From Candidatus Eiseniibacteriota bacterium (lineage in GTDB: Bacteria > Eisenbacteria > RBG-16-71-46 > CAIMUX01): 64,000 bases of DNA. Numbering within the stretch: position 1 is the first letter of the stretch; every line of letters starts with the position of its first letter. The notes below the pieces were generated by a model. That model worked only from the letters and a program-made list of their open reading frames with translations, searched no databases and was not told the DNA's origin. Positions 12,183 to 41,969 of this stretch are shown here, piece after piece. The stretch is from contig JAXLXQ010000018.1 of NCBI GenBank assembly GCA_046327845.1, forward strand, positions 1,085 to 65,084, written 5' to 3'. Made by a program: the position numbers and the translations under genes.

Positions 12183-12227
12183 ATTGAGTAACGCCCGACG
12201 TCGATCGGCTCGGGTGAGCAGGGAGCG

Positions 12228-20356: not shown

Positions 20357-20362
20357 GCCGCT

Positions 20363-24038: not shown

Positions 24039-25500
<1,462 letters not shown>

Positions 25501-26084: not shown

Positions 26085-27515
26085 TCACCGACGCCGCGTC
26101 ATCACCAGGAGAAAGCCAAAGTCTCGATCGACCGCGAACTCACTCCGGATGCGCTGCCTCACTGAAGCGGGCAAGAGTCGAAAGTGGTCATCGACAATCA
26201 CCGCACGAACGCGAGGGTCATCTAGCACCCCGAGTAGTTCGCTCTCGAGTTTCCCTGGTGGCAGGAGTCGGATCACATCGGAGTTGAGGAAGAAGTAGCG
26301 ATAAGCCGGCAGGCGCGTGAGGTACAGGCCGGACCAGAGGTCGAGCACGCGGTCCTCGGGGCGCGTCGCGCGGAGCACCGTGCGCAGCACCTCGACTTCG
26401 ACTCCCTGGCGCTGCACCGGAAGCAGCGCGACGCAGGGCGGCACGAGCAGCGCCAGGGGGAGCGCGACCCGGAAGGCGACGCCGCGGAACGACGCCCCGA
26501 TCGCAAGCACGACGCGGTGGCTGGCCCATGCAGCGGTGATGGCGAGCGCCGGCAGCACGAAGAGGAAGTATTGCCGCAGCGGCGCGTTCATCAGGAAGAA
26601 GCCGGCCAGCGCCGCGAGCAAGCTGCACGGGATCATCGTTCGCGGCGGACACTCGGGGAGCACTTCGCGTGAGCGCAGCAGTTGCCCGACGCCGATCGCG
26701 CCCAGCACCCAGGTCACAGGGTTGGCCTTCAGGATCGCCCCGCCCAAGAGCCCCCACCGCGTGCCCCACGGATCGTCGATCGTCATGTGGGCCGACGTTC
26801 CGATGCAGTCGTGCCAGAAGCCGCGAAGCGCCCCGGTCGAGGCGAGGACCGCGAGGATCATGGACGAGACGATGGCCCCGCCCAGGAGAGTCCACACGAT
26901 CGGCGCGGCCGCAGCGAAGCTCTTGGAGTCGCGCGCTCGATCGGAGAGAAGTCTGCCGAAGAGCGCACCGACAGCGGCGAAGAGCGCCTTGGGCGTGAAG
27001 AAGAGTGCGAGTCCGAAGGCAACGCCGGCTGCGCTCCACGCCACGCGCCCGCGTCGCGCAAGCAACCAGATCCCGAGCAGCAGGAAGAAGGCTCCGGGCA
27101 CGTCGGGCCGCACCTCCACTCCCTTCTCGAAGAAGTAGGCGGAGGTGAGGAGGAGGAGAGGCGCCAACAGCGCGCCGGTCACTCCGGCCAATCGCCTGGT
27201 CACGAGCGCGGTGATGAGGAGGATGCCCAGGCACGGCGCGAGCATCGCCCAGCGCGCCGCGCGGATGAGCGGCTCGGCGCCGAGCCCGCTTCGCGCGAGC
27301 GGCTGGAGCGACCAGTAGAGGAGCGGCGGGTGATTCTCGAAGAGCGAACCGTAGAGCGACTCGCCGTGCGCGACGGCGTAGGCCGCATTCAGGTGCTCCA
27401 ACTCATCGACATCGAGGAAGCGAGTCGGCGTGACCGAGATCCGAAAGGCGAGCGCGACCAGCAGAAAGGCTCCAAGAACCCACAACCAAGCGCGCTCGAG
27501 GCGGGTCACGTTCAT
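26085..27515 (-). CDS. GT-C fold glycosyltransferase (ArnT/PMT-like, polyprenyl-phosphate-sugar dependent), ~476 aa, polytopic
   Basis: Trimmed to MNVTRLERAWLWVLGAFLLV, which gives an ATGA overlap with the GT2 stop. DVDELEH acidic motif in the first periplasmic loop. About 11 TM helices followed by a soluble C-terminal domain. Confidence 0.7.
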   Translation of the reverse strand: MNVTRLERAWLWVLGAFLLVALAFRISVTPTRFLDVDELEHLNAAYAVAHGESLYGSLFENHPPLLYWSLQPLARSGLGAEPLIRAARWAMLAPCLGILLITALVTRRLAGVTGALLAPLLLLTSAYFFEKGVEVRPDVPGAFFLLLGIWLLARRGRVAWSAAGVAFGLALFFTPKALFAAVGALFGRLLSDRARDSKSFAAAAPIVWTLLGGAIVSSMILAVLASTGALRGFWHDCIGTSAHMTIDDPWGTRWGLLGGAILKANPVTWVLGAIGVGQLLRSREVLPECPPRTMIPCSLLAALAGFFLMNAPLRQYFLFVLPALAITAAWASHRVVLAIGASFRGVAFRVALPLALLVPPCVALLPVQRQGVEVEVLRTVLRATRPEDRVLDLWSGLYLTRLPAYRYFFLNSDVIRLLPPGKLESELLGVLDDPRVRAVIVDDHFRLLPASVRQRIRSEFAVDRDFGFLLVMTRRR

Positions 27516-28315
27516 CCTTGCGGCATATCCGACCGCCGCGCCGGGTCGCGCTCCACCACCTCGAGCCTTCGTCCGTCGGCGCGCAGAAAACGTGGCGTGT
27601 AGATGCCGAGGCGATCGAGGAAACCGCCCCACGATGCGCCGAGCACGCCCAATCCATAGCGCACGCTCCGCGCGAAGTTGATGCTCGAGGCTTCCGGGAA
27701 GTAGCGCGTCGGACAGGTGATCTCGCCGATGGTGTAGCCGCGGCGAATGATCTGCACCAGCATCTGGTTGTCGAAGACGAAGTCATCGGAGTTCTCGAGC
27801 AGCGGCAGGCTCTCGAGCACGCGCCGATGAAAGGCGCGAAAGCCGGTGTGGTACTCCGACAGCTTGTACTTCACGAGGAGGTTCTCGATCAGGGTGAGCG
27901 CGCGGTTCGAAACGTACTTGTACAACGGCATGCCGCCGGACAGCGCGCCCACGCCCAGGATCCTCGAACCGAGCACGACGTCGAACTGCCCTGTCGCGAT
28001 GAGCGACGCCATCGCGGTGACCAATCGCGGTGAGTATTGATAGTCCGGGTGGACCATCACCACGATCTCTTCGCCGCCGCGGAGCGCCTCGGCGTAGCAG
28101 GTCTTCTGGTTGCCGCCATAGCCGCGATTCACGGGGTGCAGAAAGGTGTCGATTCCCAACCGCCGCGCCACCTCGACGGTGGCATCGGCGCTCTGATCGT
28201 CGACCAGGATGACGCGATCGACGACGTCGTGCGGCAGCTCGCGATAGGTCTGCTCGAGCGTCTTCGCCGCGTTGTACGCCGGCATGACGACGCATACTCG
28301 GCAACCGTCGATCAC
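27512..28315 (-). CDS. GT2 family glycosyltransferase (polyprenyl-phosphate sugar synthase, DPM1/ArnC/GtrB-like)
   Basis: VVMPAYNAAKTL, ILVDDQSAD, NRGYGGNQK, HPDYQY. GTG start at 28315 chosen because GGGGGA lies 3 nt upstream and a 12-bp hairpin occupies 28401-28429. The track ORF extends to 28432. Confidence 0.8.
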   Translation of the reverse strand: MIDGCRVCVVMPAYNAAKTLEQTYRELPHDVVDRVILVDDQSADATVEVARRLGIDTFLHPVNRGYGGNQKTCYAEALRGGEEIVVMVHPDYQYSPRLVTAMASLIATGQFDVVLGSRILGVGALSGGMPLYKYVSNRALTLIENLLVKYKLSEYHTGFRAFHRRVLESLPLLENSDDFVFDNQMLVQIIRRGYTIGEITCPTRYFPEASSINFARSVRYGLGVLGASWGGFLDRLGIYTPRFLRADGRRLEVVERDPARRSDMPQG

Positions 28316-28400
28316 ACTTCCCCCTTGCGTAGGCGCCCGCGGTCGCCGCCCGCTCCTCCGCGGTGGCCCCGGTCGCGCGGAGGACATCGTAACAGGCGAA

Positions 28401-28429
28401 GCCCCGCCCGGGGTCATCCCGGGCGGGGC
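28401..28429 (-). terminator. Strong GC hairpin (12-bp stem, 5-nt loop) between the 42-heme cytochrome gene and the glycosyltransferase genes
   Basis: GCCCCGCCCGGG-GTCAT-CCCGGGCGGGGC. Starts about 40 nt after the cytochrome stop. No clear U-tract, so it may be a terminator, an attenuator or an mRNA-stabilising end. Confidence 0.45.
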
Positions 28430-28469
28430 CACTCTTCGGGCGCCCGCGTGCCTCCGACCTAGCGTGCCG

Positions 28470-31400
28470 CTAGTGGGCCGCCGTGTGGCACTGGATGCAC
28501 AGATCGCGACGTCGATCGGCTTGCAGCTGGAAGTCGAACTGCGAGGCGTGCGGGTTGTGGCACGACAGGCAGGTCAACGGGCCGTCGTTCCGAGGATCCT
28601 TGTACTGCGCGCCCAGGGGGTGCGTGTGCTTGGTTCCGTCGGCGTGGCAGGTCTGGCACAGCTCGTCGACGTTCGCCTTCAAGAGCTTCCCTTGATCGGC
28701 GCCGTGCGGCTGATGGCAGGAGCTACAGTCCGGCGTCTTGTTCAGGTGGCTCGACTTCCCCTGGAACATCGCCGGGTCATGGCAATTGCCGCAGACCGCG
28801 AGCTGTGAGCTGCTCTTCATCAGCGCCTTGCCGCTGCCGGCGTGCGGCGAGTGGCAGTTGAGGCACGCCTCGTCCTCGGTCATGGCCGGGTGCGTCACCG
28901 ACTTCGCCATCTCCTCCTTGATCTTGGGATGGCAGGTGGTGCACGCCTCCGGCCCCGTCGCCTTTCGCCCGCCGTTCGGGGTGTGGCAGGCCGCGCAGTT
29001 CCCCTGCGCGAAGGGCGGGTGAGTCGAGGCCTGCATGAGGTTGAGCTGCTTCGACGCGTGCGGGTCATGGCAGCTCAGACACGCGTCGGCCTCAAGCGCG
29101 TAGTTCTTGTGCTTCGCCTTGAGCGCGGGCGTGATCTGATGGCACGACTGGCAAAGCTCGCCCATCGGCTTCAAGAGTAGCGACTGCTCGCCGGAGCCGT
29201 GCGGGTTGTGGCAAGCCTGGCACTTGTCCTTCGCCACCGGGTCGTGCAGCTTCGCGCCCTCGAACGAGGCGACCAGATCCTTGTGACACTCACCGCAGAG
29301 CGCCTTCCCCTCCGCCTTCAGCAGCTTGGGATGGGTCGAGCGATGCGGATCGTGGCAGTCGCCGCACTTCCCTTCGGCCACCGGCGGATGGTGGACGCTC
29401 GCCCCCTCGGCGATGTCGGAGTGGCACTCCTTGCACAGATCCGGCTGCGCCTTCTGCAGCAGCTTGTCACGCTCGGAGGCGTGCGGGTTGTGGCAGATCA
29501 CGCACTCGCCGTCGGCAACCGGCGGATGCACCGACTCGCCGGCCGCGGCCGGCGCGGTGATGTCGGGATGGCAGGTGGCGCACTTCTCCGTCATCGAGCC
29601 GGTGAGCGGGCCCGGAGTGCCTTCGCCGTGACAGACCGCGCACTCGCCCGAATCGAATGGCGGGTGCCGCTTGGATGCGAGCAAGCCCTTCGACTCGGAC
29701 CCGTGCGGCTGATGGCAGCCGACGCAGTTGAGCTTCGCCAGCTCGGCTCCCTTGTGCTTCGCCTGGAGCGCAGGGTCGCTGGTGTCGTGACACTGCGCGC
29801 AGAGTTCGGTGGCAGCCGCGATCAGCATGCCGGGCGAGTCGCTGCCGTGGGCAACGTGGCAGGCAGTGCAGGCGCCGTCCCGTGCCGGCGGGTGCGCGGT
29901 GGGCAGGTTGATCGCCTTGGCGATGTCGGCGTGGCAGCTCAAGCAGGTCGCGCGCTCCGACGCGATCAGGAGGTGCGGCTCCTTGGATCCATGTCCACGG
30001 TGGCAGGAGTCGCAGCGCCCTTCCTTTACCGGCTCGTGCGGATTGGTCTTGGCCGCCGCCTGCTCCAGCACGTCGCCGTGGCACTCGCCGCACACTTCCT
30101 TCGCCTCGGCGCGCAGCCCGTTTTCCTTCTTACCAGAGTGCGGCGCGTGGCAGATCAGGCAGTCCTGATCGACGAAGCCTTGGTGCACGACCGGCAGGTT
30201 GCCCTGCGCGACCACGCCAGAGTGGCAACCCTTGCACAGGTCGGGGCTCTGCGCCTTCAGGAGGTGCGCCTGATCTCCGCCGTGCACCGTGTGGCAGGAG
30301 CCGCAATCGCCGCCGGCGAAGGGCGGGTGCGCGTACTCGTCGCCGCGAGCCGGTTCGGCATTCTCGTGACACTGCCCGCAGAGCTTTGCCTCGGGCGCGG
30401 CCAGCAGGTGGGGTTCATTGGAGAGGTGCGGGGCGTGGCAGTCGGTGCAGGCCATCGACTCGAGCGCGGGGTGCTTGACCGTGGCGTTGGTCGCGAGTGA
30501 GTCGATGTCGGCGTGGCACTGCTTGCAGGTTTCGCCGTTCTCCGCGCGAAGGAGACCACCGTGATCCGAGCCGTGGGGGTCGTGGCACTTCCCGCATTGA
30601 TCATCGTTGAACGGCGCGTGCACGGAGGCCACCGGGCTGGTCGGAATGAGCCCGTCGTGGCATTCGTTGCAAAGCTCCTTCACTTCCTTCTTGAGCACCG
30701 CCTCGGTCGTGCCCTTGTGCGGGTCGTGACAGGTGAGGCACTCCCCTTCGGCAGCAGGGGGATGCGGATGGGCGCGATCGCCGAGCTTCTCCAACTCGCC
30801 GTGACAGGTGGTGCAGAGTTCCGGCACCTGCGCCACGAGCGCTCCGCCGGTCGGGGTGGTGTGACAGGCCTCGCAGTTGCCCGTCCTGTACGGTTCGTGA
30901 CCGCCGGTCACGAGAAGCTGCTTCTCCCTGCTGCCGTGCGGCTCGTGGCAGGCGCCGCAGGGCGCTTGCTTCCACCCGTCGCCCGGGTGTTTGGCGGCGA
31001 GGGCGTCGCGTGACTTGCCGTGGCAGCTCAGGCAGAGCGCTTCCTCGTCCTGGTTGAGCAGCTTGGCCGTGGTGTTGCCGTGCACGGTGTGGCATGTGCC
31101 GCACTTCTCGCTCGAGGCCGGCGGATGCCCGCCCGCCGCGATCTTCTCTTTCACGTCCTCATGACAGGCAAGGCAGGAGAGATCGGCGTCGTAGCGACGG
31201 AGCAAGCCGTCGTCGGTCGAATTGTGAGGCGAGTGACAGACGAGGCAGTCGCCCCGCTCGGGCACGGGGTGGCCGGACTTCATCGCGCCGGTCGCGCTCT
31301 GCTCCGCGTGACAGCCGATGCAGAGGTCGGGCGGATTGGCCAGGAGAACGAGCTTTTGATCGAAGCCGTGACGCTTGTGACAGGCCTCGCACTTTCCGTC

Positions 31401-31574
31401 CGCCACCGGCTTGTGCTCGGTACCGGCCTTGTAGCGCTCGACCGCGTCAGCGTGGCAGTCGACGCACTCGCGCCCGCCCTTCGACTTCGACGCGGAAAGG
31501 CTGGACGCCGCCGGCCAGAGCGCGGCGATCGAGACGAGAGCCGCGATCGAGAACAGCTTCGCGGCGCGTTTCAT
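28470..31574 (-). CDS. Giant multiheme c-type cytochrome, 42 CxxCH motifs, built from ~21 tandem diheme (paired-CxxCH) repeats; Sec signal peptide
   Basis: I counted 42 CxxCH motifs in 1034 aa (one per ~25 aa). Recurring unit: HPP-x-G-x-C-xx-CH-x-PH-x(5-8)-LL-x(6-10)-LC-xx-CH. N-terminus: MKRAAKLFSIAALVSIAALWPAASS. Confidence 0.95.
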   Translation of the reverse strand: MKRAAKLFSIAALVSIAALWPAASSLSASKSKGGRECVDCHADAVERYKAGTEHKPVADGKCEACHKRHGFDQKLVLLANPPDLCIGCHAEQSATGAMKSGHPVPERGDCLVCHSPHNSTDDGLLRRYDADLSCLACHEDVKEKIAAGGHPPASSEKCGTCHTVHGNTTAKLLNQDEEALCLSCHGKSRDALAAKHPGDGWKQAPCGACHEPHGSREKQLLVTGGHEPYRTGNCEACHTTPTGGALVAQVPELCTTCHGELEKLGDRAHPHPPAAEGECLTCHDPHKGTTEAVLKKEVKELCNECHDGLIPTSPVASVHAPFNDDQCGKCHDPHGSDHGGLLRAENGETCKQCHADIDSLATNATVKHPALESMACTDCHAPHLSNEPHLLAAPEAKLCGQCHENAEPARGDEYAHPPFAGGDCGSCHTVHGGDQAHLLKAQSPDLCKGCHSGVVAQGNLPVVHQGFVDQDCLICHAPHSGKKENGLRAEAKEVCGECHGDVLEQAAAKTNPHEPVKEGRCDSCHRGHGSKEPHLLIASERATCLSCHADIAKAINLPTAHPPARDGACTACHVAHGSDSPGMLIAAATELCAQCHDTSDPALQAKHKGAELAKLNCVGCHQPHGSESKGLLASKRHPPFDSGECAVCHGEGTPGPLTGSMTEKCATCHPDITAPAAAGESVHPPVADGECVICHNPHASERDKLLQKAQPDLCKECHSDIAEGASVHHPPVAEGKCGDCHDPHRSTHPKLLKAEGKALCGECHKDLVASFEGAKLHDPVAKDKCQACHNPHGSGEQSLLLKPMGELCQSCHQITPALKAKHKNYALEADACLSCHDPHASKQLNLMQASTHPPFAQGNCAACHTPNGGRKATGPEACTTCHPKIKEEMAKSVTHPAMTEDEACLNCHSPHAGSGKALMKSSSQLAVCGNCHDPAMFQGKSSHLNKTPDCSSCHQPHGADQGKLLKANVDELCQTCHADGTKHTHPLGAQYKDPRNDGPLTCLSCHNPHASQFDFQLQADRRRDLCIQCHTAAH

Positions 31575-32065
31575 GGGGTGGTCCTCCCTATCCCTGGAGT
31601 CGCTGTCGTCGGGGCCTTGCCCGGCGCCCAGATCAGCGAGTCGACTTGAAACGAGAGCTCGGACTTGGGCGCGAAGTGCGGCACGTCGGTGAAGAAGGCC
31701 CAGCTGGCCTCGACGCGTTTGCTCCCCTCGTACACTTCCACCTTGAGCGCCGGATTGCGCATCTCCTTCGACCGCGAGATGACCTTCTTCGTGCGGTCGT
31801 CGATCGCGAAGTCAGGGACGAAGTCGACGATCTTGCCGTAGAAGTCGGTGTCGCCGATCTGAAACTTCTCACCGGGCACTGCGCGCTCGATCTCCACGAA
31901 GTCGGGGTGCATGCGGTGCGTGACCCGGAGCTGCACCGCCTGGAGCGAGGAATCGCACGAGGAAATGACGAAACCTAGGAGGGCCGCGGCGAGCAAGCGC
32001 ACGCGCGGGTTCCACCGCTCGAGTCTGGCGTCGAGTCGATGGCGGAAGCCGGGGAACTTCATCAT
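31571..32065 (-). CDS. Small lipoprotein (164 aa), unknown function
   Basis: Lipobox LLGFVISSC. ATGA overlaps with both flanking genes. Confidence 0.7.
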   Translation of the reverse strand: MMKFPGFRHRLDARLERWNPRVRLLAAALLGFVISSCDSSLQAVQLRVTHRMHPDFVEIERAVPGEKFQIGDTDFYGKIVDFVPDFAIDDRTKKVISRSKEMRNPALKVEVYEGSKRVEASWAFFTDVPHFAPKSELSFQVDSLIWAPGKAPTTATPGIGRTTP

Positions 32066-32721
32066 CGATCGTTCTCCAACGAGGCTCGGCGCGCGGGGTC
32101 CAGGGGAGGACCGACGCGACAGACGTTGCGCATCGACTGCGCCAGCTGGTGCGAGATGACCGCTGCCAGTCGGTCCGCGGTGCGGATGCGTCCGATGCCG
32201 AAGAAGGTCTCGCCGTCGTCTCCCTCGCGCGAGGCCGATCCAGCCCAGATCACGAGGCCGTTCGAAGCGTCGATCAGGCGCAGGGTGATCGCCACCACCG
32301 GCAGACCACGCGGCCGGTCCTTACCCTCCGCGTAGTCGATGCCACGCCCACCAGGGAGGTAGTCGGCGCCGGCATGGGAGGCGAGCGATTCCATCTGCTC
32401 GGCCGACATCCGGTCGGGGTCGAGGATGCGAAGCTGACGGAGGGCGCCGGACACCAGGCCCGGATCCTGGATGCGGAAGTGATCCAGCGCGCCCAATTCG
32501 ACCAGGAGCTTCTGCACGAAAACATTCCCCGCCGCCTCGGACGAGGTCAGATTGCCGAGCGGCAAGAACGCGACGGTGGCGCCCGGTCGAACCCCTGATT
32601 CGGCGACCGTGAACTGCTGCAAGCCCGGGGCGCATCCGACGAGGGTCACGAGCAGGAGCAGCGACAGGGCGGTCGCGGCCACCGACATCCGTCGTGAGTG
32701 CGAAGGGATCACGCGCTGCAT
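32062..32721 (-). CDS. Lipoprotein with LpoB/PelC/TolB-N-like signature
   Basis: Trimmed to MQRVIPSHSRRMSVAATALSLLLLVTLVGC (lipobox) with GAGAGG SD. ATVAFLPLGNLTSSEAAGNVFVQKLLVELG matches the (V/I)A(V/I)LPF-x-N pattern of this lipoprotein fold class. Confidence 0.65.
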   Translation of the reverse strand: MQRVIPSHSRRMSVAATALSLLLLVTLVGCAPGLQQFTVAESGVRPGATVAFLPLGNLTSSEAAGNVFVQKLLVELGALDHFRIQDPGLVSGALRQLRILDPDRMSAEQMESLASHAGADYLPGGRGIDYAEGKDRPRGLPVVAITLRLIDASNGLVIWAGSASREGDDGETFFGIGRIRTADRLAAVISHQLAQSMRNVCRVGPPLDPARRASLENDR

Positions 32722-32731
32722 CTTGCGCCTC

Positions 32732-33349
32732 TCAGTCCGGCAGGCGCCCGACCAGCTCATCCGCCACCGACTCGGTCAGCTCGGAGAGGGTCCGCGCGCC
32801 GCCCAGGTTCAAGATCGGTATCGCGGCGCCACCGCGTCGCGTCACGCTGGTCGACCAGACGATCGTGCCCGTCTTGACGTCGACCAATCGAACCTCGACC
32901 GACACCAGCGGCCGTCCGGTGGCCGATCCCTCGAGGAAGTCGCGCACCGTCCCCTCGAAGATGCCCTGCACGCCGGTCGAATCGCCGAGGGCCGAGAGGT
33001 TGGTGATCGGCAGCCCGATCGGCGGCGCGGTGTTGGCGCCGACCGAGATCGAGTAGGCCGAGAGGAACTGCCCCGGTTCAGCCACGGCAAACTTGCGCGA
33101 GAAGATGAGGTGCGAGGTGAAGGCGGAGGACATCTTGTCCCCGGCCAATCGATCGTTGGTCAGCGATGCGAACGGAAGGACGCCGACGCGCTCGTAATAG
33201 CCCCAGTCGGCCTCCTCGTGGAGGAAGCTGTTGCTGCCGCCACACCCCATGGCCAGCAGCAGGAGGATCGCACCGATCAGCAATCGCACTCGCACGACTT
33301 CCCCTCCCCTCGTTCCTCCTGCCCAACTACCCGGTCGCGATTGGCTCAC
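32732..33349 (-). CDS. Lipoprotein, distant paralog of the previous one (LpoB/PelC/TolB-N-like)
   Basis: Lipobox LLLLAMGC. RVGVLPFASLTNDRLAGDKMSSAFTSHL. Starts 4 nt after the barrel gene stop. Confidence 0.65.
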   Translation of the reverse strand: MSQSRPGSWAGGTRGGEVVRVRLLIGAILLLLAMGCGGSNSFLHEEADWGYYERVGVLPFASLTNDRLAGDKMSSAFTSHLIFSRKFAVAEPGQFLSAYSISVGANTAPPIGLPITNLSALGDSTGVQGIFEGTVRDFLEGSATGRPLVSVEVRLVDVKTGTIVWSTSVTRRGGAAIPILNLGGARTLSELTESVADELVGRLPD

Positions 33350-33353
33350 GAAG

Positions 33354-34994
33354 TCAGAAGCGCTGGAGCAGCGACGCGCTCCACAGGCTCGACCCCGAAC
33401 CGACCGCGGGCAGCGCTCGCGTGTGCGACGCCGTCATCTCCCACAGCCGGGAGACGCGAACACGAAGACTCCCGCCGCTGGTGATGCCGAAGGTCCGGCC
33501 CCTTCGCGCATCCTGATCGGAGGCGCGGACGGCGCTCCAGCTCCACGCGGCATCTCCCCAGCGCCACGGCGCCGACACGCTGCCCGAGACGCCGTACTTC
33601 GATCCGGCCGCCTGCTCGCGCAGTTGGTGTCCGTCGTAGCGCATCGTGATCGAACCACCGCGGGCCAAACTCAGAATCGTCTCCACCGTGTAGTAGACGC
33701 GATCCATGTGGCGCAGCGAGATCTTCTGACCTAAGCGATCGGCTTGGGTGCTGGCCTGAACTTGTACACCGTCCACCGGCCGGAGGCGAAGCTCGATGTT
33801 TTGGGCCACCCGGTAGCGCTGCGCGGCGGGTACGCCCTCCAACGCCTGACCGGTCCAGTCGATGGCAAAGATCGCGCCGGGGCGGAGCGGACCATCGAAG
33901 CGCAGGCCCAACTGATCTGAAGGAGTGCTGGCGCCGGTCTGCGCCAGGACCCAGTTGCGGGCCGCGGTCGCGGTCGCGGTCATCTCCGGCAGGACGTGGT
34001 GGCGGGTGACCAGCTGCGCGCGCATGTAGTCGTTGATCGACTCCGCGCCGGAGACGAGCTGCCGTTGATAGGTGCGAATCACCGCCACGTTCGAACCCTG
34101 CCAAGGCTCGATCGAGGTGTTGACGCTGCCGTCCAGATTGCGGTCGTTGCGATCGCGCCTGGCGCGTTCCCGGTAGCGCAGCGTCTCCCAGTTCAGGTCG
34201 CCGCCCAGGCTCCAGACGCGGGTCGGGCGGAGGGTGACGCGCGACTCCAAGTCATCTCGGGTGTTTCGCCGGGTGGAGCCGTCCCCGATTCGATCACGCC
34301 CCTGCACGTGCCGCGCGCCGAAGCCGCTCGTCATCCAGCTGCCGGTGGTGTGCTGCGCCTCCGCGCCGAATTGGGTCTCGCGCGTGCGACGACGCACCGC
34401 GGCCGCGCCCGGAATGGGGATCCCACCGATCGTGCGCTGACTGTTCGAGTCCTGCCAACGGTCGGAATAGTCGAAGTCGATTCCGCGGAGCCTCTGCGCC
34501 ACGGCGAGCCGTTGCTCGTCGACCTGCGTGTTGTTGGGATTGCCGATGCTGTTCGAACCGCCGTAGCGGCGTTCCCTCGAGGTCGACTCGAAGCGCAGGT
34601 TGGGCAGGCCTTCCTTGTGGAGCTGCCCGCCCCACGAGGTCTCATTGAGCTTCCACGTGGGCGGTTGATTGATCGAGACGCGCTGATCCGGGCGGTTGCG
34701 GAAGTAGAGGTCGAGCGGCGTGCTTCGAAACTGCAGGTCGCCGCGTCCGCGGAAGGTGTGGACACGCTGCTCGAAATCTTCTTCACGCTGCAACTGCCCG
34801 AGGAAAACGAGGGACCGGTCTAGGCCAAGGTGAAAGAGGGTGCGGCACTCTAGCACTTGATCGGACGTGCGGAATCTCCCGTTTGCTAGGCGGGAGGAGA
34901 GGTAGGTCGAATGCAGGCGATAGTCGACCTCGGCCTGGGCCGGTCCAACGAAACTCAAGACGGCAATGGCCACGAGACCGCTCCGGGCGCGCAT
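33354..34994 (-). CDS. Outer-membrane beta-barrel protein (546 aa)
   Basis: Signal peptide MRARSGLVAIAVLSFVGPAQA. Alternating amphipathic strand pattern rich in R, D, Y, G and T. C-terminal SLWSASLLQRF with terminal Phe (OMP signature). Its start overlaps the stop of the upstream cytochrome gene (TAATG). Confidence 0.8.
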   Translation of the reverse strand: MRARSGLVAIAVLSFVGPAQAEVDYRLHSTYLSSRLANGRFRTSDQVLECRTLFHLGLDRSLVFLGQLQREEDFEQRVHTFRGRGDLQFRSTPLDLYFRNRPDQRVSINQPPTWKLNETSWGGQLHKEGLPNLRFESTSRERRYGGSNSIGNPNNTQVDEQRLAVAQRLRGIDFDYSDRWQDSNSQRTIGGIPIPGAAAVRRRTRETQFGAEAQHTTGSWMTSGFGARHVQGRDRIGDGSTRRNTRDDLESRVTLRPTRVWSLGGDLNWETLRYRERARRDRNDRNLDGSVNTSIEPWQGSNVAVIRTYQRQLVSGAESINDYMRAQLVTRHHVLPEMTATATAARNWVLAQTGASTPSDQLGLRFDGPLRPGAIFAIDWTGQALEGVPAAQRYRVAQNIELRLRPVDGVQVQASTQADRLGQKISLRHMDRVYYTVETILSLARGGSITMRYDGHQLREQAAGSKYGVSGSVSAPWRWGDAAWSWSAVRASDQDARRGRTFGITSGGSLRVRVSRLWEMTASHTRALPAVGSGSSLWSASLLQRF

Positions 34995-36103
34995 TAGTCC
35001 TCCCCCTCACCTGGGTGGTGGACGTTCTCGCTGGTCGCGGAGCTGTAGTCGGAACCGTGGCAACCGAAGCATCCCCGGACGTCGGTGGCCGCGTGGCCGC
35101 CCTCGTCCGGGAGCGTGTTCATCACGATGCCGTCGACCGTGATGGAGCCCGGCACGCCGTTCGCCGGGATGTGGCAGCCAAGGCAGAACGCCCGGTTGGC
35201 CGCCGGATTGGTTTGGGTATCGACGAGCCCACGCCAGCCGGGTCGCTCGTCGCTGATCAAGAAGGCGTTCGGCGAAACGCCGTCGTTCCCGCGCGAACCG
35301 TGCGGGTTGTGGCACTCGTAGCAGGGGAGCGGATCGCCCGCCCGCATGTAGCTGGGCCAGGAGATCGCGATCTCGGGATTGCGGCGGATCTGGTGGCCGG
35401 CGCGCTGGTCATTGTTGATCGCGGGGTCGTAGTAGTCGGCGATGAGGCGATTCGGCGCATCCATGCCGACGGGACCCGAGGGACCGTGGCAGTCGAGGCA
35501 GGCCGCCATCCGAACCGCCGCGCGACCGGGCCAGCTTCCGCCCCAGGGTTGGTAGACGGCCTTCAAAAGATCGTGCGGGCCCGCCCCTTCGTGGGGATCG
35601 TGGCAGTTGCGGCAAAGGCCGCTGCCGTCGCCGTCTTCGATCGGCATGTCGGGGTCGTTGCGGTGCGGCGAGTAGTAGTGGCCGTTCGCGGCGACCCGCG
35701 TGTCTTCGAAGACCAGCATCCCCGGCCAGCGTCGTCTGAGCAGCACGCCCGGGGTGCGTTGGCCGCCGCTGTTGGCTTCGAAGTAACCAGGAGCGTCGGC
35801 GGTCTCGGGGAGGCGATCACTCTCGATCGCGGGATAACCCGGCGGGCGCTGATCATGGCAGCCACCGATTCCGCCGGCCCCGTAGCAAAGTTGATTGTCG
35901 TTCGGAGCGAAGAGGATCTTCGGCTCGGGCGTCATCCCCTCGTTGTCGTGAAGCGGATGGCACTGCGAGCACTCGCCGATGGTGGGTGGATCGGTCGGGA
36001 TGCGGTTGACGCCGTAGATCGGGTCATAGTGCGGATTGGCGCTCGGTGTCTGCGCCAGGCTGAGCAAGGTCATGAGAACGATCGGTCCGCCGGGTACGAA
36101 CAT
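34994..36103 (-). CDS. Multiheme c-type cytochrome: 6 CxxCH plus one possible Cx8CH site
   Basis: CSQCH, CRNCH, CLDCH, CYECH, CLGCH, CFGCH and CYGAGGIGGCH. Trimmed to MFVPGGPIVLMTLLSLAQTPSA (signal) with GGTGAGGAGA SD. The longer track ORF would run through a hairpin. Confidence 0.85.
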   Translation of the reverse strand: MFVPGGPIVLMTLLSLAQTPSANPHYDPIYGVNRIPTDPPTIGECSQCHPLHDNEGMTPEPKILFAPNDNQLCYGAGGIGGCHDQRPPGYPAIESDRLPETADAPGYFEANSGGQRTPGVLLRRRWPGMLVFEDTRVAANGHYYSPHRNDPDMPIEDGDGSGLCRNCHDPHEGAGPHDLLKAVYQPWGGSWPGRAAVRMAACLDCHGPSGPVGMDAPNRLIADYYDPAINNDQRAGHQIRRNPEIAISWPSYMRAGDPLPCYECHNPHGSRGNDGVSPNAFLISDERPGWRGLVDTQTNPAANRAFCLGCHIPANGVPGSITVDGIVMNTLPDEGGHAATDVRGCFGCHGSDYSSATSENVHHPGEGED

Positions 36104-36135
36104 CGTCCTTGTCTCCTCACCGCCCCTAGTGACTT

Positions 36136-36167
36136 GGGGCACGGCTGCGCGATGCGCCCCGTGCCCC
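36136..36167 (-). other. GC-rich hairpin in the OmcS-like / heptaheme intergenic region
   Basis: GGGGCACGG...CCGTGCCCC with an inner GCGC-GAT-GCGC extension. Lies about 35 nt upstream of the next start codon. Confidence 0.4.
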
Positions 36168-36240
36168 TCGTCTCTTCGTCCTCAGCCCTGCCGCCTTCCC
36201 CAGGGTCGCCGGGCGCTGGCGGCCGGAGCGAGTCGGAACG

Positions 36241-36266
36241 GCTCGCGCCGCCTACGCGGCGCGAGC
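36241..36266 (-). terminator. Perfect 10-bp hairpin immediately after the OmcS-like gene
   Basis: GCTCGCGCCG-CCTACG-CGGCGCGAGC, 10 nt after the TAG at 36277-36279. No U-tract. Confidence 0.5.
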
Positions 36267-36276
36267 GTCTATCCTA

Positions 36277-37281
36277 CTAGCCCTGAATGTGGCACTGCTT
36301 GCAGAGATCCTTCACCGCCACGCCATCGTCACCTTCCTCGGACACGGTGCCCGTGCCCTTCATGAAGATGAGGCCGAAGGCGTGCTTGTTGCCGTGCGCC
36401 TTGTGGCAGCTCATGCAGGACGGGGTCACGCCGGACGGCGGGGGATCCCACACGCCGGTCGGGCTCATCACGTGCACGCGGTTGGTGCGGCTGGTGAAGG
36501 TGGTGAGGCTGGAGTGCCCACCGGTCAGGCCGCCGATGTTGGCGTCAGCGTTCGGGTGGCGGAGCCACTCGGCGCCAGTCGCGTCACCGCCGACTTCCGG
36601 GCCGCCCTTGGCGCCGTGGAAGTTGGTGTGGCAGCCCTTGCAGAACATCGCGTACTTCGACGCGGTCTGATCCGGCTCGTTCCAGTCGACGTTGTTGTAG
36701 GCGTAGTGCGAGGTCATCGGGGTGGTGGCGCGCTCGAAGATGTCCTTGGTCAGGTCGTTCGTGCCGATCGCGTAGGTCACCGTCGAGTTCGACGGGGCCG
36801 TACCGGTCTTCACCCGAAGGTTACGATAGGCGCCGCCGGCACCGTGCTGATGGTGGCAGTCGGTGCAGCTCAGGCCGTTCGTGTTCGACCAGGTGCCGCC
36901 AGGAGCCACGTCGGTCGCGTCCAGGGTGTGGCCGGTCGCGTGGTAGTAGGGCGCCGAGCCGTTGCGGTTCAGACCACCAGCCTCGCGAACGTAGCTGTTG
37001 GAGTTCGCGCCGAGGACGTCCGGTGCGAACGAGGTGTTGTTGTGGCAGGTCAGGCACAGGTCGTTGACGTCATTACGCAGCAACGCCTCGTACGGACCAC
37101 TGGCGCCGAGCGGCGCGTAGATCCCGGTGCCGTCCTCGTTGTAGCCGTGGGTCTGGCTATAGTGCATGACGTGGCAGTCGGCGCAAACTAGCGTCGTCCC
37201 GGTGTGAAAGTCCCCGGCCATGGCAAGGGGGACTCCGATCAGAAGCGCGAATGCTCCGAGAAGAAGTCCGAGCCGTTTCAT
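36277..37281 (-). CDS. OmcS-like hexaheme c-type cytochrome (candidate filament-forming subunit)
   Basis: Six CxxCH: CADCH, CLTCH, CTDCH, CKGCH, CMSCH, CKQCH. Signal MKRLGLLLGAFALLIGVPLAMA. The mature end GDFHTGTTLVCADCHVMH resembles Geobacter OmcS FHSGGVAECEGCHTMH (from memory). FCKGCHTNFHG...WLRHP resembles WCANCHT...LRHP. The final LCKQCH resembles LCNKCH. Confidence 0.75.
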   Translation of the reverse strand: MKRLGLLLGAFALLIGVPLAMAGDFHTGTTLVCADCHVMHYSQTHGYNEDGTGIYAPLGASGPYEALLRNDVNDLCLTCHNNTSFAPDVLGANSNSYVREAGGLNRNGSAPYYHATGHTLDATDVAPGGTWSNTNGLSCTDCHHQHGAGGAYRNLRVKTGTAPSNSTVTYAIGTNDLTKDIFERATTPMTSHYAYNNVDWNEPDQTASKYAMFCKGCHTNFHGAKGGPEVGGDATGAEWLRHPNADANIGGLTGGHSSLTTFTSRTNRVHVMSPTGVWDPPPSGVTPSCMSCHKAHGNKHAFGLIFMKGTGTVSEEGDDGVAVKDLCKQCHIQG

Positions 37282-37325
37282 GTCAATCCTCACTTTCGGT
37301 ACGTCTTGGGGCGCCGAAACTACCG

Positions 37326-38441
37326 CTACCGCGAAGCCCCCGGCGCCAGGATGTCAGTCCGTCCACCCAACCCATCCACCCCAACTCCCACCGAGTCCCG
37401 ACCCGTGGGGGTCGTAGCCTCGGCTGAGATCTCAGGCGCGCTCATCTGGAAAGCAGAGAGGCGCGCGCCCAACCTCTCCAGCACGAACAGGCGATCCTTT
37501 CCGTCCGTGGCCATCGCCGCGGGATAGAGAAGATCGCCCAGCTCCCTGCCTGCCGCCCCAACCATTCCGACGTAGGTCCCGTCCAGAGCGAAGACCTTAA
37601 TCGTCTGGCGGATCGCATCCGCCACCCACATCCGCCCGGAGGCGGCCACCACTGCGGTAGGAAGAGAGAAGTTCTCGTTGCCAACATCGTGCGTTCCCAG
37701 CGCGAGCAGAAGCTCGTGCTCGGAATCGTAGACACGGACCGGCGGCTCGGCCGTCGCGTCCGTGATGTACAAGCGACCCGCGGGGTCCATGTACAAACTG
37801 GTGATCGCGCCGAAGGGCTTCGCCCCGGCGTCGCGGCCATCCACCGTCCAGAGGATCGTGTCGTCGCTCGCCACGCAGACGATCACGGCGTCATGCGAGC
37901 CGACCGCGACGATGAGGTGATCTTCGGGATCGAGCGCTAATGACACCGGTCGGAAGTCGCCGGGAATCGCGCTGGAGGAGTTCGGGTCGGGCGCAGCCCA
38001 TCCCTTGAACTGCGCCGGGTCGATCTGGCGGACGGGCTGGCCGAGGAGGTCCATCACCTCGACCCGGTCCGAGAGGGCGTCGATCAAGTAGAGGAGACCA
38101 TCCCGCGTCACCGCGAGATTCTTCGGCTCGCCCGGAATCGGACCGCGCGGGCTATCCGCGAAGACTTGGTAGCTACGAATCTGCATCCCCGACCCGTCGA
38201 GGGCGCGGATGCGGTGGTTGCCGGTGTCGGCGACCCAAAGAAGGTCCCCCTGAGCGTCGTAAGCCAGGCCGAGAGGGCGGTTGAAGTCGACCGCGGCGGA
38301 AGTCCTGTCGACCATCCAAAGAGGGGTCGCCTGCACAGCCCCCTCGGCTTGGCTTGGCGACGCCCAGAGGGATGCGGCCAGGACACCCGAGATCCAGCCC
38401 GTCACGATCCACCCACCGGACCGCTGCGGAAGGCGCCCCAT
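37326..38441 (-). CDS. NHL-repeat six-bladed beta-propeller protein, secreted
   Basis: Repeats such as LLWVADTGNHRIRALD, LLYLIDALSDRVEVMD, RLYITDATAEPPVRVYD, RMWVADAIRQTIKVFA and RLFVLERLGARLSAFQ. Start at MGRLPQRSGGWIVTGWISGVLAASLWASPSQA (GGAGG SD). The track ORF extends to 38525. Confidence 0.8.
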   Translation of the reverse strand: MGRLPQRSGGWIVTGWISGVLAASLWASPSQAEGAVQATPLWMVDRTSAAVDFNRPLGLAYDAQGDLLWVADTGNHRIRALDGSGMQIRSYQVFADSPRGPIPGEPKNLAVTRDGLLYLIDALSDRVEVMDLLGQPVRQIDPAQFKGWAAPDPNSSSAIPGDFRPVSLALDPEDHLIVAVGSHDAVIVCVASDDTILWTVDGRDAGAKPFGAITSLYMDPAGRLYITDATAEPPVRVYDSEHELLLALGTHDVGNENFSLPTAVVAASGRMWVADAIRQTIKVFALDGTYVGMVGAAGRELGDLLYPAAMATDGKDRLFVLERLGARLSAFQMSAPEISAEATTPTGRDSVGVGVDGLGGRTDILAPGASR

Positions 38442-38642
38442 GGTGGCCTCCGTCGCGATCCCCGTTTCGTGAATGGACTGGTTCATCTTGGTGTCCCTGG
38501 TTATGTGCCAGTTTTCACTAGTCACCTCGCGTGCCGAATTGGTCCAGAATTGGCCCTCAAACCAGCTGGGAGCTAATTGCCTGCGCAGAGGAAAGTTACG
38601 GAGAGAAAATCAGCAGCCCGGTCAAGTCGTAGCGTGGATGAG

Positions 38643-39445: not shown

Positions 39446-39638
39446 CCCGGAGCGGCGCCGTCTTGCTCACGCGAGGGACGATCTCTAGACTCCCCGCACG
39501 CAACTGAAGGCGGCTTCGCGCAAACGCAGGCGTTGCGAGCGCCGTAGCCACCCTCCGCTGCTCCCCGGCAAGCCAGTGTACGTGATCTCACTTGTCCGCA
39601 TGGAAGTTGAACGTTCGAACAAGGAGGACAGTGTAGCA

Positions 39639-41969
39639 ATGAGGTCCCCAGCCATCCGCGTCAGTGGCTTTCTTGCCATCGCCGCCATCGCCACCACGTC
39701 TTCGGCAATGGCACCCCCCCCAGGCACGACCTCGGTCGCGCAAGATCCGTGGGTGCACGGCGAGATCCTTGTACAACTTTCGACCGCGGCGATGCGGTCG
39801 GCGGACTTTCACAGCAACCTGATGTCGTCGGGCCGGACCGGAATCGCGTTGGTCGACCAGAGCCTCCGCGCCATCGGGTCATTCGAGGTCTCGAGTGTCT
39901 TCGAGCGGGGCAACGATCCGGGCGCCCGCTCCGCCGCCGGACTGGACCGCATCTTCCGCGTGCGCTACGCCGATTTGATGACTCCTGATCAGGCGGCCCG
40001 GATGTTCGCCGCGAACGGCGACGTCGTGTTCGCCGAACCGAATTTCATCGCGCACGCGCTGGTCACGCCGAACGATCCGACCTACCCACTGCAGTGGGCG
40101 CACAACAACACCGGTCAGGCGATCAGCTACACCGGCGGCAACGTCGGTACGGCCGACTGCGACACCGACACTGATCAAGCGTGGGATCTGCAGACCGGCA
40201 GCGCGACCTTCATCCTCTCGGTGATCGACACGGGCGTCGACACCGGGCATCCGGAGTTCGCGGGACGAATCGTCGCCGGCTTCGACTACGTGAACAACGA
40301 CTCGAACCCGACCGACGACAATGGCCACGGCACCTGCTGCGCCGGAATCGCGGCCGGGGCCGGCAACAACGCGGCGGGCACCGCCGGCGTGGCCTGGAAC
40401 GTGAAGATCATGCCGGTCAAGGTGCTCGACTCCGCCGGCAGCGGCTCCTACACCTGGGTCGCGAATGGAATGACCTTCGCCGCCGACAATGGCGCCAAGA
40501 TCCTCTCCATGAGCCTCGGCGGTCCGGCATCCTCGACGCTCCAGACCGCGGTGAACTACGCGGTGAATACGAAGGGGTGCGCCCTCTTCGCTGCCACTGG
40601 CAACTCGAACGCCTCGGCGCTCGATTATCCGGCGGCATACAGCAACGTGATCTCGGTCGGCGCGCTGTCGCCGTGCAATGAGCGGAAGAGCCCGTCGAGC
40701 TGCGACGGCGAGAACTGGTGGGGCTCGAACTACGGCACCGGGATCGACTTCATGGCGCCCGGCGTGCGCATCCATTGCCCGGACATCCGCGGTGCCGGCG
40801 GTTTCGGTTCCGGTGACTACATCTCGGACTTCAACGGCACCTCATCGGCCACTCCGCATGCCGCGGGGATCGGTGCGCTCGTCTGGTCACAGAATCCGGC
40901 GTTGACCAACACCGGACTCCTCACCGTTCTGCAAAACAACTGCGATGACATCGGCACCGCCGGCTATGACACGCAGACCGGCTACGGTCGCTTGAACGCC
41001 TTCCGCGCCGTGCAGAACGCCGCGGGTGGTGGTGGCGGCGGCGGCACTCCCATCACCGTCTTCTCGGAGGACTTCGAGACCAACGTGGTGCCCGGCACGG
41101 TCTGGGGCGCCAACGACGCGAACGGCACGAGCGGTGCCGACTACTGGGGCGACCAGTCGAGCGGCTCGGGTGCGCGGGTACACGGTGGAAGCTGGAGCGC
41201 CTACTGCGCGGACAATTCCAGCGTCGCCGGGCAGCGCTACGACAACAACATGACCGCGTACATGACCAAGACCGCATCGGTCAGCCTGAGTGGCGTGACC
41301 AACGTCACCTTCTCCTTCTGGTTCTGGAACGCGACCTTCAACGCCAGCGACTACCTGGCCTTCCAGTACTGGAACGGCACAGCTTGGGTCGAGCAGCAGC
41401 GCTGGTCCGGCGCGAGCACCGGCTGGACGCAGGCGAGCTACACGCTCACCGGCTTCACCACGTTCCAGTGGCGCTGGCTCTTCTTCTCGAACTCCAGCAG
41501 CACTGCCGAAGGGGCGTACATCGACGACATCGTGATCTCCGGCGTGACCGCGATCGCCCCGCCGCAGCCGATGGCGGTAACCCTTCTTAGCGAACGCACC
41601 GAGCCCGACATGACCGCCTCGCTTCGGGGCGATCTCTCGAGCGTGAAGGGAAACCCGGTCGAGATTGAAGCGCCCGAGCTGGCGTCGATCGAGCCGGGGC
41701 ACCTGGCCGCGTCTCCCAACCCGGTGATGAGCAGCGCGACGCTCCGCTTCGCCCTCGCCATCCCTGGTTCGGTGAGTCTTGAGGTGTACAGCGCGGATGG
41801 ACGGCGCGTGGCTCGAGTCTTCGAGGGCGCTCTCGCCGCCGGTCCGCACAGTCTCGACTGGAACGGCGCGGGCGGCGACGGGCGCGCGCTTCCCGCCGGG
41901 GTCTACTATGCGCGGCTCAGCATCGACGGCGCGCTGAGCGCCGTCTCGAGGATGGTCCTCGTGAGGTAG
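39639..41969 (+). CDS. Subtilisin-like serine protease (S8) with FlgD-Ig/T9SS-like C-terminal sorting domain
   Basis: Catalytic triad contexts VIDTGVDTGHPEF, GHGTCCAGIAAG and GTSSATPHAAG. Start at MRSPAIRVSGFLAIAAIATTSSAMA with AAGGAGGA SD. C-terminus: SPNPVMSSATLRFAL...VYSADGRRVARV...GVYYARL...RMVLVR. Confidence 0.9.
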   Translation: MRSPAIRVSGFLAIAAIATTSSAMAPPPGTTSVAQDPWVHGEILVQLSTAAMRSADFHSNLMSSGRTGIALVDQSLRAIGSFEVSSVFERGNDPGARSAAGLDRIFRVRYADLMTPDQAARMFAANGDVVFAEPNFIAHALVTPNDPTYPLQWAHNNTGQAISYTGGNVGTADCDTDTDQAWDLQTGSATFILSVIDTGVDTGHPEFAGRIVAGFDYVNNDSNPTDDNGHGTCCAGIAAGAGNNAAGTAGVAWNVKIMPVKVLDSAGSGSYTWVANGMTFAADNGAKILSMSLGGPASSTLQTAVNYAVNTKGCALFAATGNSNASALDYPAAYSNVISVGALSPCNERKSPSSCDGENWWGSNYGTGIDFMAPGVRIHCPDIRGAGGFGSGDYISDFNGTSSATPHAAGIGALVWSQNPALTNTGLLTVLQNNCDDIGTAGYDTQTGYGRLNAFRAVQNAAGGGGGGGTPITVFSEDFETNVVPGTVWGANDANGTSGADYWGDQSSGSGARVHGGSWSAYCADNSSVAGQRYDNNMTAYMTKTASVSLSGVTNVTFSFWFWNATFNASDYLAFQYWNGTAWVEQQRWSGASTGWTQASYTLTGFTTFQWRWLFFSNSSSTAEGAYIDDIVISGVTAIAPPQPMAVTLLSERTEPDMTASLRGDLSSVKGNPVEIEAPELASIEPGHLAASPNPVMSSATLRFALAIPGSVSLEVYSADGRRVARVFEGALAAGPHSLDWNGAGGDGRALPAGVYYARLSIDGALSAVSRMVLVR

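Follow-up and report, generated by a model that had tools for sequence, protein, structure and literature searches.

A compact, divergent osc-type OmcS nanowire cluster predicted in an Eisenbacteria-like bacterium

We describe a ten-gene locus on the minus strand (positions 26085-38525) of a 64,000-nucleotide (nt) stretch of DNA from Candidatus Eiseniibacteriota bacterium (contig JAXLXQ010000018.1), hereafter the window, and find that it reads as a compact, divergent variant of the osc OmcS nanowire cluster and not as a system of an undescribed kind. We consider it probable, though well short of certain, that this osc-type system produces an extracellular filament from a short cytochrome of the OmcS family, exporting the subunits and supplying the filament with electrons. 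An earlier note, made from the sequence alone, had listed ten head-to-tail genes with an NHL propeller, multiheme cytochromes, a family 2 glycosyltransferase (GT2) and a GT-C enzyme among their products. The ten open reading frames (ORFs) do lie in this way at the coordinates it gave, and the NHL, multiheme, GT2 and GT-C (PMT_2) domains were matched with Pfam and NCBIfam. Its proposal of an extracellular electron-transfer or cytochrome-filament locus is upheld as well. Its view that the system is undescribed has to be given up, since homologues of seven of the eight core products occur in canonical omcS loci and since the traits that had seemed new (lipoproteins encoded after a barrel, a multiheme cytochrome of giant size, a filament cytochrome within the locus) are hallmarks of osc.

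The osc (omcS-companion) cluster of Geobacter sulfurreducens, GSU2505-GSU2493, was reported by Shen et al. 2025 (Cell Chem Biol 32:239). As far as the summary of that work in PMC13194489 goes, oscC encodes an OmcS-like protein and oscI a periplasmic multiheme cytochrome, while OscH is assigned to folding, OscE, OscF and OscG to channel-like secretion, and OscD to morphology. Our canonical set consists of 78 loci found with a 213-residue fragment of G. sulfurreducens OmcS (the best is 70% identical, and the locus of G. sulfurreducens itself is not among them). They come from Geomonas, Citrifermentans, Geobacteraceae, Anaeromyxobacter and Nitrospirota, and all their ORFs were translated and searched with the proteins of the window. 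The labels OscD to OscI are used here by gene order and two secondary descriptions. In Geomonas limicola (L043) the layout is GT2, a PMT_2/tetratricopeptide-repeat (TPR) protein, a membrane protein of 1005 amino acids (aa) with a spermine-synthase-like domain, a 631-aa TPR protein, an NHL-type propeller, OmcS, an OmcS-like cytochrome, a YncE-like propeller lipoprotein, a barrel of ~760 aa, a GNA1162/LpoB-like lipoprotein of ~200 aa, a lipoprotein of ~400 aa, a PPIC/SurA-like isomerase and a multiheme cytochrome. Five of the eight core products of our locus have phmmer homologues in the 78 loci, and two further ones, the barrel and a 382-aa cytochrome, are homologous by profile comparison, which brings the number to seven.

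The predicted filament subunit is encoded at 36277..37281 (minus strand, as are all genes of the cluster). It is a cytochrome of 334-338 aa with six CXXCH motifs and a signal peptide ending in ...LAMAG|DFHTG, and it belongs to a highly conserved family of ~335-355 aa with 1136 homologues, annotated in Eisenbacteria, Krumholzibacteria, Latescibacterota, Zixibacteria and Acidobacteriota. A single-sequence search of the PDB gave no match, and only the family profile reached OmcS. The 33-sequence profile matches OmcS 6ef8 with E=7e-9, collinear across all heme motifs and beginning at the mature N-terminus (FHSGG..CxxCHxMH), where OmcS FHSGGVAECEGCHTMH is aligned to DFHTGTTLVCADCHVMH. Comparison with hhalign of this family with the canonical OmcS family gives 99.6% and E=5.7e-25 over 303 columns, that is, over the full length. 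In the OmcS structures, His16 of one subunit ligates heme 5 of the neighbouring subunit in the filament. The equivalent of His16 (H40, in the N-terminal CxxCHxMH) and the heme-5 motif C289xxC292H293, aligned with CLSCH 328-332 of OmcS, are both invariant in the 33 sequences. Because of the profile matches to 6ef8 and to the canonical family, and because of these two invariant sites, we regard the hexaheme as a genuine but short OmcS homologue at the level of sequence, and the label OmcS-like that it had been given at first reading is thereby substantiated. An AlphaFold2 (AF2) model of it was poor, with a predicted local distance difference test score (pLDDT) of 45, as expected for a protein modelled without its hemes.

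Genomic contexts were taken from the close relatives of the barrel and from sampled relatives of the hexaheme. The core order that recurs in them is NHL, short OmcS, an OmcS paralogue of 370-400 aa, a barrel of ~540 aa, two lipoproteins of ~195 and ~210 aa, a protein of 140-165 aa and the giant cytochrome. This order is found in loci from Eisenbacteria (L002, with the giant cytochrome spread over three frames), Krumholzibacteria (L086), an unclassified bacterium (L085) and a metagenome contig (L087), and also in Latescibacterota (L081) without an adjacent NHL gene, and a partial contig (L001) agrees with it. The synteny check suggested in the earlier note thus found the gene order conserved in relatives (L002, L081, L085, L086 and L087), and the locus is a real, conserved system. 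Two other arrangements were seen. An Acidobacteriota contig (L084, JBFMGF010000091.1) has a short OmcS together with canonical OscD-, OscE-, OscF-, OscG- and OscH-type genes, those of the OscE, OscG and OscH types upstream of the short OmcS and those of the OscD and OscF types downstream, and so presents a bridging architecture. In two loci of Zixibacteria type (L082 and L088) the short OmcS is duplicated, and of the core they otherwise have only the pair of the small protein and the 42-heme cytochrome. A PAS/GAF LuxR-type regulator lies between the two short-OmcS copies; the pair, with a small protein of 148 aa, comes next, and then a 194-aa protein and three cytochromes. Adjacent PelC-like genes were not detected in these two loci, and no barrel of the family described below is adjacent.

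The 382-aa cytochrome is encoded directly after the short OmcS (34994..36103, at which coordinates it has 369 aa). It seemed unrelated to OmcS until family profiles were compared, and its search against the PDB gave no significant relative. By hhalign, the profile of its family of six aligns to that of the short OmcS at 97.4% (E=9e-12), with residues 161-325 on OmcS hemes 1-4 only. The protein is accordingly a divergent paralogue of OmcS, extended at its N-terminus by a further heme-bearing stretch. It is kept at the same position in L001, L002, L081, L085, L086 and L087. On the DmsE/MtrA decaheme model it scores 19 bits against a cutoff of 192. The cytochrome had been read as carrying six or seven hemes; the six CXXCH motifs stand, and the seventh heme is uncertain, since it would depend on a CX9CH motif at residue 86 (CYGAGGIGGCH) that is kept in five of the six orthologues and begins with Ala instead of Cys in the remaining one. 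This motif may be an unusual seventh heme site or hold a heme by a single thioether. We suggest the protein as a candidate minor, adaptor or base subunit of the filament.

The gene that follows (33354..34994) encodes a 546-aa protein with a signal peptide and the C-terminus ...LLQRF, predicted to have 28 strands, short loops and no plug. It has no match in Pfam or NCBIfam at E<=0.01, the MtrB/PioB, OmbB and ExtB families included. It belongs to a rare family (18 representatives, each of 515-570 aa, in a set of 1.84 billion proteins), and a further word-index search for relatives with a 20-sequence profile returned the same four proteins again. The AF2 model from the 18-sequence alignment has a mean pLDDT of 89.2 and consists of 28 strands connected by short turns; it lacks a plug domain and ends in Phe, in agreement with the outer-membrane barrel first read from the sequence. 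In the 78 canonical loci a single-sequence phmmer search with the barrel gave no match, and hhalign from five sequences against the canonical barrel was negative (6% probability). From 18 sequences, hhalign matched the canonical barrel of ~760 aa at 96.6% (E=6.6e-10) over the N-terminal 208 columns, the alignment beginning at the signal-peptide cleavage site. Since this match is significant only with the 18-sequence profile, reversed-sequence decoys were added as a control, and these scored ~40 as compared to 90 for the real pair. The barrel of the Acidobacteriota locus L084 matches hidden Markov models (HMMs) of both barrel families. Taken together, these comparisons point to remote homology with the canonical OscE-position barrel, in the N-terminal third at least.

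A Foldseek search with the barrel model returned generic large barrels only, the best being MtrB (6r2q_B) with a TMq of 0.47 at 8% identity, as compared to TM values of 0.28-0.38 for TonB-dependent receptors, ushers and LptD. This result bears on the main one of three rival explanations, namely that the locus encodes a giant porin-cytochrome conduit. In such a conduit a 42-heme, MtrA-like rod would be threaded in the 28-strand barrel as MtrA is in MtrB, the OmcS-like proteins would be terminal reductases at the surface or form a filament that is exported otherwise, and a ring of PelC-like lipoproteins would only stabilise the complex. Apart from MtrB being the best structural match, the absence of a plug and the short loops fit this explanation, since something must fill the lumen. 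At the same time the barrel has no MtrB/PioB or other Pfam match and is remotely homologous to the OscE-position barrel, and it is the gene for the OmcS paralogue that is translationally coupled to the barrel gene, while the 42-heme gene lies three genes away.

The 42-heme protein itself (28470..31574) has 1034 aa, a signal peptide without a lipobox and 42 CXXCH motifs spaced by ~24 residues. It is matched by Pfam Paired_CXXCH_1 (8e-207, 22 stretches), and in NCBIfam it reaches 461.8 bits on the DmsE/MtrA decaheme model in nine stretches, which is a further point for a conduit; the OmcA/MtrC model scores far under its cutoff on the cytochromes of the cluster. With phmmer it finds multiheme ORFs at the distal end of canonical loci, downstream of omcS, with E-values (inflated by the repeats) down to 2e-134, and we take it by this homology and position to be the counterpart of the canonical OscI of ~26 hemes; a complete canonical giant cytochrome (L027) has 26. 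Exactly 42 CXXCH motifs are found in the window and in L082, L085, L086, L087 and L088, in proteins of 1034-1057 aa. The copy in L002 is broken over three frames and that in L081 was called with 21 hemes, which look like assembly problems in a repetitive gene. A heme count fixed at 42 across phyla suggests a length constraint and also speaks for the conduit. The Zixibacteria-type loci speak against such a rod, in that they have the 42-heme gene and its small partner with no adjacent barrel of this family, and so does the fact that a lipobox was found in none of the three cluster cytochromes, unlike in MtrC or OmcB. As MtrB is the best structural match of the barrel and the giant cytochrome is made of MtrA/DmsE-like modules, the conduit keeps some weight, but we judge it unlikely, and favor an osc-type assembly in which the 42-heme protein would be a periplasm-spanning heme wire that charges the filament.

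Directly upstream of the giant cytochrome gene, here and in all sampled loci, lies the gene for a small exported protein, of 164 aa in the window (31571..32065, lipobox ISS|C-D). In Pfam, NCBIfam, the PDB and the canonical osc families no relative of it was detected, and it is the one core product outside the seven. Orthologues are present in L001, L002, L081, L082, L085, L086 and L087 and have the motifs HRxHPDF, GDTD, PDFAI, NPAxK and WAF..PHF in common, whereas the lipobox Cys is retained only in the Eisenbacteria and Zixibacteria copies. We propose that this protein could act as a partner or anchor of the 42-heme cytochrome.

Two more products carry a lipobox by motif inspection, LAMG|C and LVG|C respectively, and are PelC-like lipoproteins encoded between the barrel and the 164-aa protein. 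The first (32732..33295) is of OscF type and has 94 phmmer matches in the 78 canonical loci (best 8e-21), and with hhalign it matches the OscF-type family at 99.4% (E=4e-21). The second (32062..32721), a paralogue of the first with a weak Pfam LpoB match, is of OscG type and has 103 matches (best 7e-26); hhalign places it on the C-terminal domain of the OscG-type lipoprotein of ~400 aa at 99.5% (E=3.4e-23). The canonical genes that both of them match lie 5-8 kb downstream of omcS. Against the PDB, a 12-sequence profile of the lipoproteins finds PelC (9h80_C, E=9e-15; 5t11, E=9e-14), GNA1162 (E=4e-7) and LpoB (E=1e-4), which bears out the PelC/LpoB/DUF799-like character they had been given before. 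A curli channel of the CsgG type was considered and rejected, as CsgG reaches an E-value of 0.2 only. PelC forms a ring beneath the PelB export barrel, and entry 9h80 holds 12 PelC chains. By analogy, the lipoproteins of the cluster could form the same kind of ring under its barrel, which fits the description of OscE, OscF and OscG as channel-like.

The PelC homology (E=9e-15) is also the first argument for another rival explanation, according to which barrel and lipoproteins export an exopolysaccharide or glycoconjugate in the manner of Pel, together with the GT2 and GT-C enzymes, and the cytochromes are mere neighbours. The two glycosyltransferase genes lie directly downstream on the same strand: GT2 at 27512..28315 (a polyprenyl-phosphate sugar synthase-like enzyme, Pfam Glycos_transf_2 2.3e-18, best NCBIfam models PpgS and AglJ) and the GT-C membrane enzyme at 26085..27515 (Pfam PMT_2 1.1e-7). 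On the other hand, the lipoproteins are most closely related to the OscF/G-type proteins encoded with omcS, barrel and lipoprotein genes are syntenic with OmcS-like and multiheme genes in every sampled core locus, and a glycosyltransferase pair stands beside the core in none of the five other complete core loci (L002, L081, L085, L086 and L087). Nor did Pfam scans of the window, which covered ~40 of its 44 genes, find PelA, PelB-TPR, PelD-G or other polymerase or synthase domains. Polysaccharide export is therefore, of all the explanations weighed here, the one to which we give the least credence.

The glycosyltransferase pair had been thought to be embedded in the locus. It is located at the 3' end, past a strong hairpin, and as it is missing beside the core elsewhere it is loosely associated and outside the conserved core. 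GT2 is 66% identical to the enzyme upstream of the Geomonas omcS cluster, beside which a PMT_2 enzyme is also found; beyond the common Pfam family, no similarity was detected between the cluster GT-C and the Geomonas PMT_2/TPR protein. Since the alignment with the Geomonas enzyme begins there, GTG 28315 is the most likely GT2 start as judged from sequence. This start leaves a spacer of 154 nt ahead of GT2 with a hairpin inside it, and therefore the pair may be a transcription unit of its own. Its products may glycosylate the filament or the envelope.

At the other end of the cluster is the gene for an NHL-repeat beta-propeller with a signal peptide (37326..38441, Pfam NHL 1.9e-16). The longest ORF extends to 38525, and ATG 38441 is the likely start. 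In many canonical loci phmmer matches the protein to the ORF that directly precedes omcS, and hhalign with the canonical upstream NHL protein gives 98.0% (E=1.9e-13). Sequence inspection shows a signal peptide of the ordinary kind on the NHL protein, on the barrel and on each of the three cytochromes.

The gene junctions are largely as previously listed. The earlier note counted six coupled ones, of which five hold: the TAATG junction at 34994 between the cytochrome and barrel genes, the ATGA overlaps at 32062, 31571 and 27512 (the last of them joining GT2 and GT-C), and the 10-nt gap ahead of ATG 32721. The sixth, a 4-nt gap at 33350, arises only from the longest ORF, and the first lipoprotein more likely starts at GTG 33295 or 33289, behind GGGGAGGGGAAG, a good ribosome-binding site. 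The strong hairpins noted after the OmcS-like and 42-heme genes are both present, with perfect G+C stems. The one after the OmcS-like gene (36241..36266, minus strand) has an 11-bp stem without a U tract and a folding energy of -31.4 kcal/mol (z = -3.58), and none of 200 shuffled sequences was equally stable. It is probably an mRNA stabiliser or a partial terminator that would raise expression of the subunit over that of the downstream genes. The one after the 42-heme gene (28401..28429, minus strand) has a 12-bp stem and likely marks the end of the core transcription unit. A scan for consensus terminators and promoters gave background level only.

From the homology of seven of the eight core products to canonical parts, the core order across phyla and the confidently predicted barrel fold, we infer a route with export through the barrel, a lipoprotein ring, polymerisation and an electron path. 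All products would be exported by Sec, and the cytochromes loaded with heme in the periplasm. Heme-loaded OmcS-like subunits would leave the cell through an outer-membrane channel made up of the plug-less barrel of 28 strands and of a ring of both PelC-like lipoproteins that caps it on the periplasmic side, the role that is also proposed for OscEFG of Geobacter. Outside the cell the subunits would polymerise head to tail, with the His of CxxCHxMH (OmcS His16) ligating heme 5 of the neighbour. The 42-heme cytochrome and its 164-aa partner would carry electrons over the periplasm to the base of the filament, the 382-aa OmcS-like cytochrome and the NHL propeller could serve as adaptor and scaffold, and the GT2/GT-C pair would be an optional neighbour.

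Several points weigh against this account. An HMM of OscD-type propeller lipoproteins (from 40 canonical proteins) found none among the 44 genes of the window, and an HMM of OscH-type isomerases found none in its 64 kb; the Rotamase domain is likewise absent from the Pfam scans, and OscH could sit elsewhere in the genome. Both OscD and OscH are reported to be necessary for normal OmcS nanowires in Geobacter. The short OmcS is ~100 residues shorter than OmcS (334 vs ~430 aa) and belongs to a subfamily of which no filament has been seen. The homology of the barrel is confined to its N-terminal third, with 546 aa as compared to ~760 aa, and its top structural match is MtrB, as the giant cytochrome is built of MtrA/DmsE-like modules. 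One could also imagine a distinct apparatus, in which a length-fixed 42-heme wire, delivered by the 164-aa partner, threads the barrel through the PelC-like ring and serves as the base on which short OmcS polymerises. We hold this to be improbable, to about the same degree as the conduit; if true, it would provide a continuous heme path from the inner membrane to the tip of the filament that needs neither OscD nor OscH.

Five genes on the plus strand, those in 19667-24038 together with an activator gene, are directed at the 3' end of the cluster. They encode a GCV_H-like membrane protein, an NrfC-like 4Fe-4S protein (20363-21184), NrfD (21181-22422), a HAMP histidine kinase with a single periplasmic CXXCH and an NtrC-type sigma54 activator (24014-25500). 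A similar NrfCD-type module with cytochromes adjoins the homologous cluster in L085. The NrfCD-type module is a candidate inner-membrane electron entry point. It also figures in the third rival explanation, a redox module confined to the periplasm, where the cytochromes would act as a capacitor or as a link to the nearby NrfCD-type quinol module and the barrel would be an unrelated porin. The NrfC/NrfD pair is ~4 kb away, the L085 cluster has a similar pair next to it, and the signal peptides of the three cytochromes are of the ordinary kind, without a lipid anchor, all of which would suit such a module. Arguing in the opposite direction, the genes for the cytochrome, the barrel and the lipoproteins are tightly coupled in translation and conserved together across phyla, and there is the homology to OmcS including the inter-subunit His; we consider confinement to the periplasm very improbable.

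The kinase and activator had been noted as a heme-sensing two-component, sigma54 operon that abuts the locus convergently. We find no support for a link with the cluster beyond adjacency. No -24/-12 site is found upstream of the cluster, in a scan for sigma54 promoters that gave fewer sites than expected by chance. The activator is split into two overlapping ORFs in different frames, with the receiver and AAA+ domains in 24014-24955 and the AAA lid and a Fis-type helix-turn-helix in 24892-25500, which reflects either a frameshift or a sequencing error, or else marks a pseudogene.

Elsewhere the window carries ordinary chromosomal genes, among them those for a tricorn-like protease, an H+-pyrophosphatase, and glutamate and aldehyde dehydrogenases. 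A C-terminal FlgD_ig domain occurs in four proteins (2070-2759, 2889-6350, 6445-9987 and 39576-41969), including two of >1100 aa without other Pfam match and one S8 peptidase; in this lineage it probably serves as a tag for secretion or sorting. The products of the cytochrome cluster all lack this domain, and for that reason we rejected the idea that they are cargo of FlgD_ig-tagged secretion; if the domain is a secretion tag, its absence fits a dedicated export route. Four consecutive genes at 11652-15853 (plus strand) encode proteins of 176, 367, 535 and 387 aa without Pfam match, the last with a lipoprotein-like N-terminus (LGLASC).

Eisenbacteria, Krumholzibacteria and Latescibacterota are common in soils and sediments. 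If our interpretation holds, OmcS-type nanowire machinery extends to these uncultured lineages of the FCB group. The compact form would then represent a minimal conserved set of eight genes without isomerase and propeller lipoprotein, useful for asking which parts the export of a cytochrome filament needs and for heterologous production. The link from OscF/G to PelC would give a concrete structural model of the channel, a lipoprotein ring beneath a barrel, and the invariant 42 hemes raise the testable question of a molecular ruler for crossing the periplasm.

Among known systems, the porin-cytochrome conduits (MtrAB, 6r2q, in MtrCAB; OmaB-OmbB-OmcB; ExtABCD) resemble our locus in having a large plug-less barrel, with 28 strands here as compared to 26 in MtrB, in a barrel gene beside multiheme cytochromes, and in the MtrA/DmsE-like di-heme units of the giant cytochrome. 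They differ in that our barrel does not belong to MtrB/PioB by sequence, no cytochrome is a lipoprotein, it is an OmcS paralogue, not an MtrA-type decaheme, whose gene is coupled to that of the barrel, and the 42-heme gene is three genes away from the barrel. To our knowledge, PelC-like lipoproteins are part of no described conduit. The earlier assessment that the locus is not a classical Mtr, Pcc or Ext conduit thus agrees with the lack of an MtrB-family match, of an MtrA-type neighbour and of a lipoprotein cytochrome. In the PelB-PelC system of Pseudomonas aeruginosa (5t11, 9h80), PelC-homologous lipoproteins are likewise encoded beside an outer-membrane barrel, but here two paralogues take the place of the single lipoprotein, the 28-strand barrel lacks TPR and is larger than that of PelB, Pel synthase genes are absent, and the cargo is predicted to be a heme protein where that of Pel is a polysaccharide. 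The omcE clusters of Desulfuromonadia combine a filament cytochrome with multiheme cytochromes, beta-propellers and a large barrel, for which a role as secretion pore or anchor has been proposed, and have GT2, GT4 and GT39 genes as an optional, lineage-specific appendage (bioRxiv 10.1101/2025.10.22.684050). Their subunit is the tetraheme OmcE, unrelated in sequence to OmcS, and PelC-like lipoproteins are not mentioned in that description.

The closest likeness is to osc, with which our locus has in common the order of NHL, OmcS hexaheme, further OmcS-like cytochrome, large barrel, PelC/GNA1162-like lipoproteins and giant cytochrome, and in Geomonas omcS likewise adjoins a GT2 and PMT_2 pair. 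The OmcT/OscC of the canonical cluster is paralleled by the 382-aa cytochrome, in which the N-terminal extension is novel. The second lipoprotein is a single domain here as compared to ~400 aa in canonical loci, the giant cytochrome has 42 hemes as compared to ~26, the conserved 164-aa protein has no canonical counterpart, and the host is Eisenbacteria-like and not one of the Desulfuromonadia. In the uncultured FCB-group lineages, Krumholzibacteria among them, OmcS has so far been scored as a marker gene only (PMC7914226). The short OmcS, the small 28-strand barrel, the single-domain PelC-like lipoproteins, the 164-aa protein, the fixed 42-heme wire, the absence of OscD and OscH from the window and the spread over candidate phyla of the FCB group appear to set the locus apart as a distinct variant of the osc nanowire cluster.

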